Shown piece by piece: positions 7,594 to 11,738 of a stretch of 11,862 nucleotides of DNA; positions within the stretch are counted from its first letter, which is position 1, and every line of letters starts with the position of its first letter. Source of the stretch: a virus. The stretch lies in IMG/VR virus record IMGVR_UViG_3300041809_003079; one strand, given 5' to 3'. The notes beneath the pieces were generated by a model. It was not told the DNA's origin. It saw only the letters and a program-made list of their open reading frames with translations, and made no database searches. A program made the translations under genes and the position numbers.

Positions 7594-7827
7594 GTGGACG
7601 ATCAAGCCAATGATTCGTGGAAAGAAGCAGCGATTGAGCTCGTAGGTGATTTTGTGTTGCCTGTGATTTCAGACTTGGAAGAGCGGCTTCTTATGGCAAA
7701 GATGAGGTTGGCTGAAGAACTTGCCAACTTGAGACGCGTCGAACAACGCGTCAAGGAAGCAACAGACACCGTCAGGCAGGTGACAAAAAAGCTAGCAGAC
7801 GCCCGCTCGCCGCTCGCATTAAGGTGA
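7594..7827 (+). CDS. Small coiled-coil protein, 77 aa (paralogue of the 8767..8991 product); GTG start
   Basis: SD AGGAGAGGTGA, 5-nt spacer, then GTG. Heptad-like L/E/R-rich sequence. N-terminus MDDQANDSWKEAA resembles MDNDNWREKANQ of 8767. Confidence 0.6.
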   Translation: MDDQANDSWKEAAIELVGDFVLPVISDLEERLLMAKMRLAEELANLRRVEQRVKEATDTVRQVTKKLADARSPLALR

Positions 7828-7834
7828 CGCAACA

Positions 7835-8086
7835 GTGTCGGAGCACTCGCCCCCGTCTTGGGCGATAAAGAGGATAAAAGCAAAGCCAAACGATTTTCAT
7901 CCTGGTGACCTCGCTCTTGTTAAAGGTCCTGACGGGGCGTGTTTATACTTTACTCATCAAGATTGTGAGCTTGAATTTCTTGGCGTAGGCAAAATGTTGC
8001 TTGTCATCGCAATTGACGTTCAACCACTTGGTGGCCCAGGCATGACGTTCCTGTATTGGTCTATTGCCATTCCCTCTCTCGACTAG
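7835..8086 (+). CDS. Small PGD-motif protein, 83 aa (HPGDLALVKGPDGACLYF), KOW/SH3-like by motif
   Basis: SD AAGGTGA (7821-7827), which also contains the stop of the upstream gene, followed by 7 nt and GTG. Confidence 0.55.
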   Translation: MSEHSPPSWAIKRIKAKPNDFHPGDLALVKGPDGACLYFTHQDCELEFLGVGKMLLVIAIDVQPLGGPGMTFLYWSIAIPSLD

Positions 8087-8129
8087 GTTGGGTAGGCCAC
8101 TGGCGCATGCAACATGTTGAGGATATAGG

Positions 8130-8372
8130 ATGATCGTATGTCCTGGCGACCTGGTTACGTTTGACAGCAACAAGCTTTTCCAGAGCATAGGTTCTGATAA
8201 TGACACGTGGTTGAAGCCGGGAACGGTTGTCCAGGTAATAGCAACGAGGATCGATGATGAAGAATGGATGGAAGAGTACGTCATGGTCCTAGCTGGTTCT
8301 CCCCCACGGCTAGGCTACATTTTTTACTCCGGATTGAAGATAGAGTCTAGGTACGGTGTAAATGTCATTTGA
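8130..8372 (+). CDS. Small PGD-motif protein, 80 aa (CPGDLVTFDSNKLFQSIG; second KPGTVVQVIA)
   Basis: SD GAGGA followed by 6 nt and ATG; carries the family motif. Confidence 0.55.
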   Translation: MIVCPGDLVTFDSNKLFQSIGSDNDTWLKPGTVVQVIATRIDDEEWMEEYVMVLAGSPPRLGYIFYSGLKIESRYGVNVI

Positions 8373-8408
8373 CGTAGCATATCATCCACACAGGAAGGTA
8401 GGCAACAC

Positions 8409-8525
8409 ATGCGACGACAACGAGGTTTCACGCTTTTTGAGCTGATGGTGACGATTGCGATCATTGGGATCATCATTGCACTTGCGGCCACTGGAGCCCA
8501 CGCAGTGATGTCAAACATCAGGTGA
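8409..8525 (+). CDS. 38-aa ORF with a type IV prepilin-like class III signal peptide, MRRQR-G|FTLFELMVTIAIIGIIIALAATGAHAVMSNIR. It is not in the ORF track because it is under 60 aa.
   Basis: Basic leader, Gly at -1, Phe at +1, Glu at +5 and a 20-residue hydrophobic helix match the GFTLIE prepilin-peptidase consensus. SD AGGAAGGTAGG followed by 6 nt and ATG. The TGA stop overlaps the downstream GTG start (GTGA at 8522-8525). Confidence 0.45.
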   Translation: MRRQRGFTLFELMVTIAIIGIIIALAATGAHAVMSNIR

Positions 8526-8761
8526 GCTACTCACCAGCTCATTGCCCGCTCGGGGGTAGTTTAGCATCTGCCGACAATCACGAGAAGGTGACCATTCACG
8601 TCATCGATGCTAACGGGCAGCCGATCGAGACAGTCACCAGGACGGTGATGTCGAATGATGGTAAACGTTACGTCATCTACAAACACAAACAGCGTCAGAT
8701 CAAGAAAATGAAGTTGCTGGGCGACAGTAACATGCAGCTTCGGCTGATCACGAAGGAATAG
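8522..8761 (+). CDS. 79-aa beta-rich hypothetical protein in the -1 frame relative to the prepilin-like ORF (possible globular domain of a split pilin)
   Basis: GTG start overlapping the upstream stop; alternating hydrophobic and polar pattern (KVTIHVIDANGQPIETVTRTVMSNDGKRYVIYKHK). Confidence 0.4.
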   Translation: MSYSPAHCPLGGSLASADNHEKVTIHVIDANGQPIETVTRTVMSNDGKRYVIYKHKQRQIKKMKLLGDSNMQLRLITKE

Positions 8762-8766
8762 AAATC

Positions 8767-8991
8767 GTGGACAATGATAACTGGCGAGAGAAGGCAAACC
8801 AATTGGCATGCATTGACGACAGAAGCCAAGAGGAGTATGAAGTTGCTCGGAAGGTCATCCTTGTTCGAGGTGAGTTGAATGAAGCACTGCAGGAACTCAA
8901 GAACGCAGAAGAGTCAGTGAAGGGCGTGTTAACGACGCTCGAGCAGCTGTTGTTGAGGCAGAGTGAGCTAGCAGCACGACACCTGCGATGA
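8767..8991 (+). CDS. Small coiled-coil protein, 74 aa (paralogue of the 7594..7827 product); GTG start
   Basis: SD GAAGGAA, which includes the upstream TAG, then GTG. Coiled-coil composition; N-terminal MDNDNWREKA motif. Confidence 0.55.
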   Translation: MDNDNWREKANQLACIDDRSQEEYEVARKVILVRGELNEALQELKNAEESVKGVLTTLEQLLLRQSELAARHLR

Positions 8992-8998
8992 CACCACC

Positions 8999-9100
8999 CA
9001 TGCTGAAACCTGGCGACATGATAAAACTACCTGACGGGATGATGTTGATGCCGCTTGACTTTTCAACCAACGGCGTCTTTTCGTTCTCTTCTGCATGAGA
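8999..9100 (+). CDS. Possible 33-aa PGD-motif mini-ORF (MLKPGDMIKLPDGMMLMPLDF...)
   Basis: Shares the PGD-phi-x-phi motif with six larger ORFs, but no SD is visible and it is very short. Confidence 0.2.
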
Positions 9101-9236
9101 CTTAGCGTTTGTGATAGCAGTGACGTCAGAAGAGCTGACAGTCTACCATTCTAGGTTTGAACAGGTCCTATGTATCAAGGCACAATGAATGTTATAAATG
9201 TTACACTGTCGACCAAGACACCAATTAAATTGTGCT

Positions 9237-9248
9237 TTTGTTAACAAA
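9237..9248. promoter_or_regulatory. Perfect 12-bp palindrome TTTGTTAACAAA in the 330-bp non-coding region upstream of the 9320 gene; candidate operator. Possible promoter CTGACA(9263-9268)-N19-TGTAAT(9288-9293).
   Basis: Read directly from the sequence. It lies about 70 bp upstream of ATG-9320, whose SD is AAAGGA at 9305-9310. Confidence 0.3.
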
Positions 9249-9319
9249 CGGGTGACAAAGATCTGACAGTTTGACGGTCATTGGGTATGTAATAGTGTCA
9301 CCCGAAAGGATCGTTAAAT

Positions 9320-9610
9320 ATGCCCACAGAAACAGATGTCACGAACGCAGACAACGTTGTCAACCAAGCCTACACGTCTTGGACAACTGCACATGGCAAC
9401 ACAGTCACTGCTCAGGCTGCAGCAACAGTTGCAGCAAACACGGAATCGCCCTTCTTGGCAACTTTCATTGCTGATGCACAGGCTGCAGTGACGCAGACGG
9501 TGTCATGGCTCGCAACGTGCCTACGTCAGGCTGGACAAGACCCGAGCGCTATCCTCGGCCCGTCGATCGCTGCAGTCCTCACGCTGCCTGTCAGCGGCTC
9601 TTCCTCGTAA
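9320..9610 (+). CDS. Ala/Thr-rich hypothetical protein, 96 aa
   Basis: SD AAAGGA followed by 9 nt and ATG. It has its own upstream non-coding region and a low-complexity A/T/Q composition. Confidence 0.55.
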   Translation: MPTETDVTNADNVVNQAYTSWTTAHGNTVTAQAAATVAANTESPFLATFIADAQAAVTQTVSWLATCLRQAGQDPSAILGPSIAAVLTLPVSGSSS

Positions 9611-9666
9611 TCACCCAAAATCACATGCATTGAACTCTTCCCTCTATTGGGATACACTGGCATTCA

Positions 9667-9924
9667 GTGTTGCCAGGCGACCTCTGCGTTGTAGTAAATT
9701 CTTCGACGTTACCATTCGTTGGTTTTCGATGGAAACTCAACGGTAAGACGCAGCAACTCGTTACAAAAGAACTCGTACTCATCATCAACACTGAACCTGT
9801 CCCTGACTTCATACCAAGAGGGAATGGAGGGCTTTTTGATCAACCTGTCATGGCATTGTTTGCTGATGGGCAGCTCGGGTGGACGCGCCGCTGTTTTCTC
9901 AGATTTGTGGAGGACGATGCATGA
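9667..9924 (+). CDS. Small PGD-motif protein, 85 aa (MLPGDLCVVVNSSTLPFVGF), GTG start
   Basis: Carries the family motif. Its TGA forms an ATGA overlap with the start of the next gene (9921-9924). Confidence 0.4.
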   Translation: MLPGDLCVVVNSSTLPFVGFRWKLNGKTQQLVTKELVLIINTEPVPDFIPRGNGGLFDQPVMALFADGQLGWTRRCFLRFVEDDA

Positions 9925-10121
9925 TGCTACTTGAGGCAAAGCTCTGCGTAGGCTACTACGTTAAGACACCCAGAGGTGAGTATGTCATCAGTACTACAGA
10001 GACATGGGAGTGCTGTAAGCCACAGCCAATTCCTCGCCAAGATGCTATCAAGCGTATGAATAAGTTTAACGACAAAAGCTTTCCTCAAGGAAAAGCAAGG
10101 CTAGTCAAGGTCTACAGGTGA
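9921..10121 (+). CDS. Hypothetical protein, 66 aa. Start refined to the ATG after a strong SD; the track ORF begins at 9879.
   Basis: GGAGGA (9909-9914) followed by 6 nt and ATGATG; ATGA coupling with the upstream gene. Confidence 0.5.
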   Translation: MMLLEAKLCVGYYVKTPRGEYVISTTETWECCKPQPIPRQDAIKRMNKFNDKSFPQGKARLVKVYR

Positions 10122-10153
10122 AACCTTCCACGCAACAGTGGTAGGATAGAGAC

Positions 10154-10354
10154 ATGCTCCTCATCAAGACCAACCAAGAGATGTTAGCGGCGTTAGACGA
10201 GGCTCGCGCACGTCTGGTGGCAGACCCACAGACGGCGGCCGACTGGCACGCAGTGTGGTCGCCGTTGGGACAGGCCGCAAGGTATGCGAAGGACAAGTGG
10301 GACAAGATGCGGCCCGAAGGTCCACCCAGGAAGCACACCAAGAAAGGAAAGTGA
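10154..10354 (+). CDS. Hypothetical protein, 66 aa, basic C-terminus
   Basis: SD GGTAGGA followed by 7 nt and ATG. Confidence 0.5.
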   Translation: MLLIKTNQEMLAALDEARARLVADPQTAADWHAVWSPLGQAARYAKDKWDKMRPEGPPRKHTKKGK

Positions 10355-10355
10355 C

Positions 10356-10628
10356 GTGGCGGAGGAAAATAGCTTTAAACTCACCAAAGGATGCCCAGAA
10401 GAAGTCGCATGTCATGCTGCTGGAAGGCTTCTTCGTGAGCAGCTCAAAGCGGATGGATTTCAGCTAAATGGCACGTGCGTCGTCTTGAACCATGCCAAGG
10501 ACGGTGCTGCAATCATGCTCTACATTCAGAACAAGAGCGACTGGTACAAGTTGCCATTTGAGTACAAAGGTTACGAAGTCCATCGCATGGTCACCAACTT
10601 CGAAGGATACGTGATAAAGGAGAAATGA
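10356..10628 (+). CDS. Hypothetical protein, about 90 aa. Start refined to the GTG just after the upstream stop; the track ORF begins at 10284 inside the previous gene.
   Basis: AAGAAAGGAAAGTGAC then GTG. The SD overlaps the upstream TGA at 10352-10354. Confidence 0.45.
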   Translation: MAEENSFKLTKGCPEEVACHAAGRLLREQLKADGFQLNGTCVVLNHAKDGAAIMLYIQNKSDWYKLPFEYKGYEVHRMVTNFEGYVIKEK

Positions 10629-10629
10629 C

Positions 10630-10812
10630 ATGGCAGCCAGCAACCAGACCGTCGCAGACGTCTACGCAATCATGGTGAAGTACGTTGCTCCAGAACACCG
10701 CACGGCGATGCTGAAAGAGCTTGCTGAGGTGCGTGGCAACCGCTCATTTGAGGACACCATGAAGAGGCTTGCAACGCTCCACGCTGAGCGTACAGGCGAC
10801 GGTGATCAGTGA
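10630..10812 (+). CDS. Hypothetical protein, 60 aa
   Basis: Strong SD AAGGAGA followed by 6 nt and ATG; ATG 2 nt after the upstream TGA. Confidence 0.55.
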   Translation: MAASNQTVADVYAIMVKYVAPEHRTAMLKELAEVRGNRSFEDTMKRLATLHAERTGDGDQ

Positions 10813-11114
10813 GTGTAGTCTTCAAGGTAAGGGACCGCGCAACAGGGCTGTTTGCGTCAGGAGGTAGCTTTCCTCACTGGTCGTCGGTCGGCAAGGCATG
10901 GCCCAATGTTGGAACGTTGAAGCGGTGGCTTTCTACTGTTGACGTCTATAACGCTGGCACGTCAACGCTTCGTGGCCCGCTTCCAGAATCATGGGAGGTG
11001 GTAGAATATAATGAGGGAAAGTGCTTCTTGGTCTCTGGCCTTTTGACTGGCAAGATCATTGCTGAAAATGAGCGTCTAGAGCGTCATGAGACGACGAAGG
11101 CAACGGTCGAGTGA
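10809..11114 (+). CDS. Hypothetical protein, 101 aa, GTG start
   Basis: GTGA overlap with the upstream stop (10809-10812). Confidence 0.5.
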   Translation: MSVVFKVRDRATGLFASGGSFPHWSSVGKAWPNVGTLKRWLSTVDVYNAGTSTLRGPLPESWEVVEYNEGKCFLVSGLLTGKIIAENERLERHETTKATVE

Positions 11115-11126
11115 CATCACTGCTGG

Positions 11127-11738
11127 GTGGCTCTTTTACGAGCTAGCGTAATACTCCCACCAAAGCGTTGGGTACAGTACCTCAAGGTGCTCATGGACGC
11201 TAAACCTTCTAAGATCAGGCCGCGCCAGGTGTGGTCGTTCACCGACAATGAATACCTACACGATCGAATAATCGTCGCATTGAGCCCGCCTCTTGCCCAG
11301 TTGGCACCAAAGCCTGCTGACATGCCTGAGCAGGTCGCCATGTGGGCATTGCTTCAGTCGATCGACTGGCACTTTGTTGGGCTCGTTGACAGCAACGATC
11401 GCATCGTCTATTTTGGCTCTACGTGGGCCAGAAAAGACGACGAATTCCCTGCAGGCAATGTCGCTGAATTCATCGTCAAGTACGTCGAGGATTCTGGGTC
11501 GATGTTGCCTGACAAGCTAGGCATCGTCGATGACCTAATCATCTCACCCGATTGCTTGACAACGTACTGCACCGAAGTCTCAATGCAGCAGGTGAATAAT
11601 GCGTTTCTTAGCGACCCATGTCCCACCTGCGGTAGAAGGAAGGCTTCTAGGCCTCCACGTGAGAAGGTATGTTGGGAATGCTGGCTCCAGAATTTGATCA
11701 CGAATGCTGGCGACGAGCCAAGTGAACTTTGTCCTTAA
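11127..11738 (+). CDS. Hypothetical protein, 203 aa, with a C-terminal CPTCG ... CWEC zinc-finger-like motif
   Basis: Complete ORF on the operon strand. C-x2-C-x13-C-x2-C pattern near the C-terminus. Start uncertain (GTG at 11127 with a weak SD). Confidence 0.5.
   Translation: MALLRASVILPPKRWVQYLKVLMDAKPSKIRPRQVWSFTDNEYLHDRIIVALSPPLAQLAPKPADMPEQVAMWALLQSIDWHFVGLVDSNDRIVYFGSTWARKDDEFPAGNVAEFIVKYVEDSGSMLPDKLGIVDDLIISPDCLTTYCTEVSMQQVNNAFLSDPCPTCGRRKASRPPREKVCWECWLQNLITNAGDEPSELCP

Follow-up and report, generated by a model that had tools for sequence, protein, structure and literature searches.

Does a viral gene that begins as a type IV pilin and stops after 38 codons represent one half of a broken or split pilin gene, or is it a gene in its own right? 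The question is raised by IMG/VR record IMGVR_UViG_3300041809_003079, one whole metagenome contig of 11,862 nt (hereafter the window), in which a 38-codon open reading frame (ORF) with a prepilin-like N-terminus, at 8409..8525 on the + strand, overlaps a 79-aa ORF lying in the −1 frame. An earlier reading of the bare sequence (the original prediction) had left several explanations side by side, namely a frameshifted or pseudogenised pilin, a programmed −1 frameshift, a sequencing indel, or a genuine processed mini-peptide accompanied by a separate partner. Our analysis indicates that the two ORFs are very probably separate genes, a stand-alone, headless prepilin (referred to here as the mini-prepilin) and an unrelated gene, 8522..8761, whose 79-aa product is referred to as p79. 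What remains is a peptide that carries an undamaged prepilin signal, is too short for a pilus subunit and is encoded in a huge-phage-like genome.

The mini-prepilin ORF and its class III signal

The mini-prepilin ORF (8409..8525, + strand) consists of 38 codons and a stop, with its ATG at 8409 and a TGA that ends at 8525, and encodes MRRQRGFTLFELMVTIAIIGIIIALAATGAHAVMSNIR. Six nucleotides 5' of the ATG lies a Shine–Dalgarno (SD)-like purine run, AGGAAGGTAGG (8392..8402, + strand), which was read directly from the sequence and which is among the better ribosome-binding sites of the 30 ORF starts that we tabulated, and one of the best in the block of + strand genes to which it belongs. The first six codons specify the leader MRRQRG (8409-8426, + strand), and the predicted prepilin-peptidase cut falls between 8426 and 8427, so that the predicted mature peptide, FTLFELMVTIAIIGIIIALAATGAHAVMSNIR (8427-8522, + strand), is of 32 aa and has the characteristic F1, E5 and G14, with T22 standing in place of P22.

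Profile searches identified the N-terminus unambiguously. The Pfam family N_methyl (PF07963) matched the mini-prepilin with 43 bits (E 2.7e-11; cut-off 21.2) and NCBIfam TIGR02532 (IV_pilin_GFxxxE) with 36.8 bits (cut-off 16.3); after TIGR02532 the NCBIfam matches were partial ones to pilin N-termini, GspH coming next, followed by PpdD-like pilins, PilA, GspG and the ComG pilins. Sequence matches of the 38-aa peptide in the PDB were also led by pilin N-termini (Geopilin domain 1, PilA and MshA), the top matches being the Geobacter ‘Geopilin domain 1’ chains 9egp and 7tgg (E 6e-5 to 9e-5). A Kyte–Doolittle scan with a 19-residue window peaked at 2.63 over residues 9-27 and defined a single segment of transmembrane length. 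The prepilin motif of the 38-aa ORF is not due to a chance match, and the claim of a class III signal in the original prediction is confirmed, as hydropathy and hidden Markov models, the two checks proposed for it, both call that signal.

When the mini-prepilin is set against the features that define type IV pilins and pseudopilins, it has the class III signal itself (basic leader, Gly at −1, Phe or Met at +1 and Glu at +5), in the form MRRQRG/FTLFE, and it has the hydrophobic α-1N segment of about 20 residues that follows the cut site. It lacks the α-1C helix and the β-sheet head, as the ORF stops after mature residue 32 and no pilin continuation was found in any frame. Its layout is thus a leader, an α-1N transmembrane helix of about 22 residues and a tail of about 11 residues, and the end of this tail falls at the position of the conserved ...(A/N)SR motif of GspH/FimT-type minor pilins.

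p79 belongs to an independent family of small proteins

The gene downstream (8522..8761, + strand) was examined by an exhaustive phmmer search of 1.84e9 (1.84 billion) representative proteins, which returned twelve small, stand-alone relatives of p79 of 64-111 aa, with identities of 32-45% and E values of 1.7e-11 to 4.8e-4. We refer to this family, whose members, p79 included, are encoded in arrays of small phage-like genes, as the MSYSP family. Ten of the twelve relatives align with p79 from residue 1 and begin with MSYSP, MSYST, MSYSQ, MSYA or MGYSP, and the remaining two are shorter and start at the AENHEK core; an N-terminal extension was found in none of the twelve. The closest relative begins MSYSTAHCPAGESTSTAENH, compared with MSYSPAHCPLGGSLASADNH in the window, and in every relative examined the protein starts at the MSYSP-like site with an ATG or GTG of its own. 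The family core, A-E-N-H-x-K ... R-T-V-M-x-N-E-G-K-R-Y-I-T-Y ... Q-x-K-K, is one that p79 fits, and in the family alignment (A2) residues H20, R40, V42, G47 and K61 are invariant. Word-seeded protein searches with p79, and with an artificial 117-aa fusion of the two products, found only the contig's own protein, and exact look-ups of the 79-aa product retrieved no recorded contig. High scores of p79 against giant proteins were discounted, as they are the summed similarity to Big_1 repeats (20-30 of them, in inverse autotransporters) and not homology over the whole protein.

We then considered the genomic context of eight of the relatives, in about ten distinct places. Their surroundings are arrays of small unannotated genes, some including DNA and RNA ligases, and the gene immediately 5' varies from one to the next: a 61-aa Cys-rich protein, a 63-aa protein, a 288-aa RNA ligase, proteins of 60 and 185 aa, a 43-aa transmembrane peptide, and partial ORFs. 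The motif G-F-[ST]-L-x-E occurs in none of these loci, either upstream of or fused to the p79 relative. The original prediction had suggested a search for homologues in which the two ORFs are fused; none of the twelve is fused or extended, and the pattern that it had named as contradicting a joined gene, conservation of the downstream ORF alone, is the one that we observed. The 43-aa peptide just mentioned, MEARSMIPFALVWEELKSVLLLLVAYAVILAAIALMIVIAVVR, is hydrophobic and single-pass, lacks a prepilin motif and is encoded at 349-480 of contig L134, 4 nt before the p79 homologue (485-733); together with the window, L134 makes two cases in which a small membrane peptide is encoded directly 5' of a member of the p79 family.

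The AF2 model of p79 (mean predicted local distance difference test score 77) has a disordered stretch at residues 1-20 and six strands over residues 22-74, in keeping with the β-rich character first ascribed to it. Compared with PDB folds the model gave no match (best E 0.5), and its best matches in BFVD are small uncharacterised phage proteins, for example from Bacillus phage Kirov and Sinorhizobium phage phiM9. The family profile (A2) likewise matched no PDB sequence, pilins and the Geobacter PilA-C chain (7tgg) included. No hydrophobic segment, signal peptide or transmembrane segment was found in p79, and because it lacks a hydrophobic segment the protein would have no route to the periplasm. 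We conclude that p79 is a predicted cytoplasmic β-protein unrelated to pilins, being neither a pilin head nor the conserved partner of a pilin.

The junction is an ordinary translational-coupling overlap

At the junction the GTG of p79 overlaps the TGA of the mini-prepilin as GTGA (8522..8525, + strand), and the 79-aa ORF, which runs to 8761, is in the −1 frame relative to the mini-prepilin, (8522-8409) mod 3 being 2; on these points, which can be read directly, the original prediction was correct. The p79 frame is open back to 8441, and any join would be confined to 8441-8525. Neither kind of site at which such a join might occur is present, there being no in-frame slippery heptamer X_XXY_YYZ in 8409-8520 and, within 8441-8525, no base repeated four or more times in succession. 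A GGG homopolymer had been proposed as the site of an indel; the actual homopolymer is a run of five G residues at 8552-8556, which is 3' of the pilin stop, within the conserved downstream gene and outside the region in which the frames could be joined.

The start of p79 is enclosed in a hairpin of 6 bp, GGTGAG-CTA-CTCACC (8521..8535, + strand), which contains both this GTG and the TGA of the mini-prepilin and is formed from the codons of M-S-Y-S-P; a 51-nt region around it has a predicted folding energy of -14.4 kcal/mol, with a z-score of only -1.65, which is weak evidence by itself. The self-complementary MSYS codons of the family, (A/G)TGAGCTACTCA, fold into a small hairpin across the start codon, in the window at 8521-8535 and also in L033-L036, and conservation of MSYS might in part be a feature of the RNA tied to translational coupling. 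Searches of Rfam and for tRNAs identified no RNA family and no tRNA.

Among the 30 tabulated ORF starts, that of p79 has no SD sequence of its own. Overlap junctions of the form GTGA or ATGA behind unrelated upstream genes were also seen in its relatives, as ctGTGAGCTACGCT in L034, aaGTGAGCTACTCG in L035 and L036 and tcATGAGCTACTCA in L033, and at the junction TAATGAGTTAC in L030 the overlap with the upstream gene is of a single base. Within the window, four-base start/stop overlaps occur at five other junctions (4465, 5950, 6836, 8988 and 10809), and TGA is the stop of 20 of the 30 tabulated ORFs, at tight junctions. An alternative genetic code, with TGA as a sense codon, was considered and discarded, because TGA ends these 20 ORFs and because read-through of the mini-prepilin stop would lengthen the product by just 12 residues, up to a TAG. 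The GTGA overlap finds its ordinary explanation in translational coupling and is nothing unusual; it shares with the NTGA junctions at which termination–reinitiation takes place in operons of phages and bacteria the four-base GTGA, a downstream gene without an SD sequence and a hairpin at the start. Ribosomes terminating on the TGA of the mini-prepilin would reach the GTG of p79. As the p79 gene has no SD sequence, has its GTG in a hairpin and overlaps the stop of the mini-prepilin, its expression plausibly relies on ribosomes that come from the mini-prepilin ORF; because p79 is conserved, this speaks for translation of the mini-prepilin.

Short prepilin-like genes recur in other viruses

The original prediction regarded a pilin-like gene among phage ORFs as unexpected. 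A gene of this kind is indeed present, but it is less unexpected than was supposed, as six PHROG families with a prepilin motif match the mini-prepilin and short complete prepilin ORFs recur on IMG/VR contigs. The six families (phrog_3433, annotated as ‘pilin’, and phrog_27437, 13280, 11596, 11263 and 10597, annotated as of unknown function) match with E values of 7e-7 to 2.4e-5, all through the same 25 or so N-terminal residues, and three of the six profiles are only 59-72 aa long. A scan of IMG/VR with the pattern GFTLIELMV gave 75 loci, which comprise ordinary pilins of 120-190 aa and also short ORFs; complete short examples are of 43, 48, 54 (on two contigs), 56 and 61 aa, and complete ORFs of less than 90 aa account for about 20 of the 75. 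The short viral ORFs match the six PHROG families via the N-terminal motif only, and their neighbours are T4-type genes encoding T4 RNA ligase 1, Dda helicase, a Metallophos nuclease and Band_7 proteins.

The phage prepilin-motif proteins therefore resemble the mini-prepilin in the motif itself, in being encoded by small, packed genes and, in several cases, in a length of 43-61 aa, and some of their genes overlap the next by 4 nt as the mini-prepilin does; however, the likeness is restricted to the first 25-30 residues, the tails being unrelated, and there is no single shared family. In one such contig (L077; also L062) a prepilin-like ORF of 54-60 aa (1719-1901) overlaps a Band_7/SPFH gene (1898-2719) by 4 nt. 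A protein encoded in the window and resembling major vault protein (MVP; see below) likewise has a shoulder domain of Band_7 type, which may be a coincidence.

A further group of viral prepilin-like proteins from the same 75 loci, of 78-89 aa and with two conserved Cys residues, is likewise encoded among T4-type genes and has the consensus MKQRGFTLIELMV...W/VGINGMTE.RCI.GYKF...DEFGKGV[RK]C. Members were found on viral contigs of 4.8-374 kb (L044, L049, L055, L058, L070, L073 and L083), and one is encoded by a cultured virus, Synechococcus phage BUCT-ZZ01, at 84797-85030, where it is annotated as hypothetical. The only case among the viral loci that is shorter than the mini-prepilin, of 28 aa, lies in flanking bacterial DNA and, judging from the neighbouring gene, looks like a truncated host pilin. 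A search of the literature on phage mini-prepilins found no paper.

Possible role of the mini-prepilin

Taken as a whole, the observations are in our view best explained by a stand-alone, headless mini-prepilin that is processed and that interferes with host filaments, an explanation to which we give roughly even chances; that the peptide is translated, is processed and acts on the host are steps that we infer from sequence. The mini-prepilin would insert into the inner membrane of the host with its N-terminus inside, and a host prepilin peptidase of the PilD/GspO/ComC type would cut it after Gly6 and N-methylate Phe1. The resulting headless stub of 32 residues could then compete with genuine pilins and pseudopilins for the components that recognize α-1N, candidate points of competition being the peptidase, the platform and assembly proteins, the growing filament and a pilin-sensing kinase of the PilS type. 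Regulation of that last kind reportedly has the conserved pilin N-terminus as its mediator, according to the work of Kilmury and Burrows in 2016 on PilA and PilS. The outcome would be lowered function of type IV pili, type II secretion or competence during infection, and a possible gain for the phage would be the exclusion of superinfecting pilus-dependent phages. We propose interference because the features that the peptide has kept are those that prepilin peptidases and assembly machines recognize; this particular activity, however, is put forward as a tentative suggestion that we would not favour over its negation. More speculative still, and on balance doubtful, is the generalization that headless mini-prepilins of 30-60 aa form an unrecognized class of phage accessory genes, whose products would exploit the host prepilin peptidase and act as poison subunits or decoys, directed at type IV filament machines (pili, type II secretion, competence) or at pilin-sensing regulators, with the 38-aa ORF as a minimal form.

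Inhibition of host pili by small phage proteins has precedent. The ATPase PilB is the target of two soluble proteins, Tip and Aqs1; PfsE, a membrane peptide that is not a prepilin, is said to bind PilC. The role proposed for the mini-prepilin, a block of pili and superinfection exclusion, would be analogous to theirs, whereas a stub that mimics pilin would represent a different mechanism. PHROG and Pfam searches with the mini-prepilin gave only prepilin-motif and weak holin matches and so offered no sign of kinship to Tip, Aqs1 or PfsE, a comparison that was not made pairwise. Aqs1 is the small protein with which phage DMS3 disables type IV pili (PMC13436744), and Tip of D3112 and PfsE of Pf4 are likewise small proteins that disable type IV pili (cited in PMC12378983). 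If host peptidase processing and disturbance of the machinery do occur, the mini-prepilin would add a mimicry-based member to the known phage anti-pilus proteins and would point to type IV filament inhibitors of very small size and easy portability. As a minimal form of phage-borne prepilin-like genes, it also offers an entry point to the uncharacterized short phage prepilins.

Support for the mini-prepilin as a real gene comes also from its composition. In a codon-usage test of 8409..8525 the frame of the ORF scored +8.3 bits and the other two sense frames scored below zero, and the G+C content of its third codon positions (GC3) is 0.58, compared with 0.60 in the genes of the window. Several observations nevertheless weigh against a functional mini-prepilin and have to be set beside these. 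The antisense frame across the ORF scored +15 bits in the same codon test, above the sense value; such a score is a common artefact, yet it exposes the weakness of the test when applied to only 38 codons. Non-coding gaps reach 221 nt elsewhere in the + strand block, so that a gap of 149 nt in place of the ORF would not be anomalous there. A homologue of this mini-ORF was found in none of the collections searched, and therefore purifying selection is not measurable. The pattern GFTLFELMV had no match in IMG/VR, and the 3 genome (GTDB) and 15 JGI metagenome matches to GFTLFELMVTI are all full-length pilins of at least 170 aa, with no mini-ORF among them; the metagenome collection scanned does not include the source contig. 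With 32 mature residues the window ORF is the shortest complete viral example that we have seen, and the shortest pilin to have been characterized, PilA-N of Geobacter, has about 61 aa. No ORF with the prepilin motif G-F-[ST]-L-x-E was found in 25 related IMG/VR loci, and in the 11.9-kb window Pfam and NCBIfam searches detected neither a prepilin peptidase nor any gene for type IV filaments. Finally, we know of no experiment that ties any phage mini-prepilin to a function. Two further negative results carry limits of their own: a tblastn search of GenBank phages with the 38-aa peptide found nothing, probably owing to low-complexity masking, and filament genes around the 25 related loci were looked for, and not seen, by motif scan only.

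A possible rival: a decaying remnant

The main rival to a functional mini-prepilin, which we consider the less probable account though a serious one, is that the ORF is the decaying 5' end of a captured pseudopilin gene of GspH/FimT type, the rest of which was lost as the gene block was reshuffled. On this account the stub would be functionless and would persist either because the loss is recent or because it feeds ribosomes to the coupled p79 gene. One argument for it comes from the comparison with bacterial minor pilins. GspH, FimT and FimU, of type II secretion systems and type IVa pili, have the same leader, G at −1, F at +1, E at +5, α-1N and G14 as the mini-prepilin; they differ in being proteins of 170-230 aa with an α-1C helix and a β-sheet head, where the mini-prepilin ends at mature residue 32 and is without P22, and in being encoded in bacterial pilus or secretion operons, where the mini-prepilin lies in a phage block with no filament genes nearby. 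Several of the full-length pilins with GFTLFELMVTI are FimT/GspH-like, and in the alignment their ...ASR or ...NSR lies opposite the SNIR that ends the mini-ORF, so that its stop coincides with the conserved ...SR of such N-termini, about 130 residues short of full length. The + strand block also appears to turn over fast, having essentially no homologues in the 25 related loci, and a second copy of the mini-ORF is absent from every collection searched. Moreover, the relatives of p79 are coupled to many different upstream ORFs, any translated one of which would serve, and the hydrophobic peptide without a prepilin motif that precedes the p79 relative of L134 fits this picture.

Against a remnant stands the integrity of what is left, as the start codon, the SD sequence, the leader, Gly at −1, Phe at +1, Glu at +5 and the helix are all intact and together score 43 bits, and the GC3 of the ORF is like that of the phage genes. 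The closest GFTLFELMVTI N-termini share with it no more than 16 of 33 residues, and DNA identity does not exceed 61%; because of this low DNA identity there is no recent bacterial donor, so that a capture would not be recent, and yet the motif is undecayed. Nor does any pilin residue follow downstream in any frame, and there is no other + strand ORF of at least 30 aa in 8400-8760 apart from the two genes themselves. The recurrence of short complete prepilin ORFs among the core genes of other phages, described above, also favours a functional mini-prepilin over a remnant. In a separate observation made during these searches, four JGI metagenome contigs (L116, L122, L125 and L129) were found to share one ORF in which a prepilin start, MRTMRNSGGFTLFELMVTIGLG, is followed by a run of about 300 residues rich in Arg, Pro and Gly; this resembles a FimT-like gene, in DNA of high GC content, that has undergone a frameshift, and it would be a true example of the kind of break that had been suspected in the window.

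An improbable alternative: a generic membrane peptide

The mini-prepilin might instead act as a membrane peptide of a more general kind, such as a holin- or antiholin-like protein, a depolarizing peptide or a modulator, with its prepilin N-terminus ancestral and unused. Small membrane peptides are common among phage accessory genes, and weak matches at the level of the transmembrane segment were obtained to Phage_holin_5_2 (E 0.019) and to a PHROG holin family (E 0.0074); the transmembrane peptide that precedes the p79 relative of L134, which lacks the prepilin motif, is also in line with this possibility. The holin matches, however, are far under threshold, whereas the N_methyl match is at twice its threshold, and the exact G/F-x-x-x-E register together with a short basic leader is what a prepilin peptidase needs, so that retention of these features without use is the less parsimonious view. 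We consider a generic membrane peptide improbable.

Rejected readings: broken and split pilin genes

It remains to consider the readings that treat the mini-prepilin and p79 as parts of one pilin. In the first, a single pilin gene with a product of about 117 aa has been interrupted by a frameshift or by a sequencing or assembly indel, or is expressed by programmed −1 frameshifting. The overlap of the frames, the −1 frame being open from 8441, the pilin-like size of the joined product, the β-rich downstream part and the hairpin at the junction all make this reading attractive at first sight, and it is the joined product with α-1 and a globular head that the original prediction had envisaged. 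It is defeated by the downstream gene, since p79 is a complete member of its family whose conserved N-terminus begins at exactly this start codon, and no relative examined is joined to a prepilin or has one encoded before it. A frameshifted or pseudogenised pilin is not compatible with conservation of p79 alone, with its own N-terminus, in about ten prepilin-free contexts. Programmed frameshifting of the kind known from phage G/GT or from dnaX fails for want of a slippery heptamer and because the downstream frame has an independent conserved start, and a sequencing indel fails for want of a homopolymer of four or more bases in the joinable region and because p79 is an independent family. In addition, the stretch that a joined product would have next to its helix, SYSPAHCPLGGS, is predicted to be disordered and does not extend α-1C, the p79 fold is not pilin-like, and the TGA is the ordinary stop of the tabulated ORFs. 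A broken pilin gene is therefore very improbable.

In the second such reading, two genes would encode separate polypeptides that form one pilin-like subunit, as do PilA-N and PilA-C of Geobacter. The PilA-N protein of Geobacter sulfurreducens is the closest solved match of the mini-prepilin, through the Geopilin domain 1 chains 9egp and 7tgg, and like the mini-prepilin it is headless, truncated and followed by a separate gene; here too the two genes are adjacent and translationally coupled. PilA-N, however, keeps the whole of α-1 in about 61 mature residues, and the mini-prepilin is half that length, with only 32 mature residues and without α-1C. PilA-C is exported and conserved beside PilA-N, whereas p79 has neither an export signal nor similarity to PilA-C (7tgg) or any other PDB sequence, and none of its relatives examined adjoins a prepilin gene. 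Having neither signal nor transmembrane segment, p79 would be confined to the cytoplasm and thus separated from a pilin tail located in the periplasm. This arrangement is scarcely credible, and the split, frameshift, indel and two-gene readings are all refuted to the extent that sequence analysis allows. With regard to the last of the explanations first offered, a mini-peptide with a separate partner, a mini-peptide encoded next to a separate gene is what fits best, and it is the partnership that falls away.

Two antisense ORFs, 8324..8518 (− strand, 64 aa, without a family match and read as an artefact of antisense periodicity) and 8382..8501, were rejected as true genes because they belong to no family, oppose the direction of the gene block and leave the 43-bit motif unexplained.

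Genomic setting

The mini-prepilin and p79 genes belong to a + strand block (7594..11738) in which about 15 small ORFs are tightly packed and which is divergent from a conserved block on the − strand. When the ORFs of the + block were compared with the 25 related IMG/VR loci at E <= 1e-2, no match was obtained except for 13 residues of a single 36-aa ORF, 8988..9098 (E 0.004; L010/L012). By comparison, several − strand ORFs between the MVP-like gene and 7471 (block 2141-7471) have syntenic homologues in related huge-phage contigs. On this evidence the + block is predicted to be a hypervariable accessory region of a huge-phage-like genome. A megablast search of phages and plasmids with the whole window gave no match.

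The lineage is marked by the MVP-like gene (3..2108, − strand), the 3' end of which runs off the contig. Its product matches Pfam MVP_shoulder with 94.7 bits, as well as Vault_3, Vault and Band_7, and its homologues are of two grades: those with 67-74% identity come from viral contigs of IMG/VR that reach 369 kb (L001-L008), and those with 43-44% identity from the uncultured phages LR756500 (462 kb) and LR756501/LR756503 (735 kb), records that we take to be part of a published huge-phage survey. No prepilin ORF was found in the 40-kb flanks of LR756500 and LR756501. Vault-like proteins have been reported in Borgs (one preprint), and a search of the literature for such proteins in huge phages found no paper.

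At the edge of the divergent intergenic region lies an ORF for a 211-aa protein (6836..7471, − strand), with homologues in 17 viral loci (L009-L025; alignment A1). The protein has no Pfam match, but in the alignment its SIDD core and a C-terminal G-R-G-R-P-x-G-x-x-N-R-P-K are invariant, and this C-terminal stretch resembles a DNA-binding motif of the AT-hook type.

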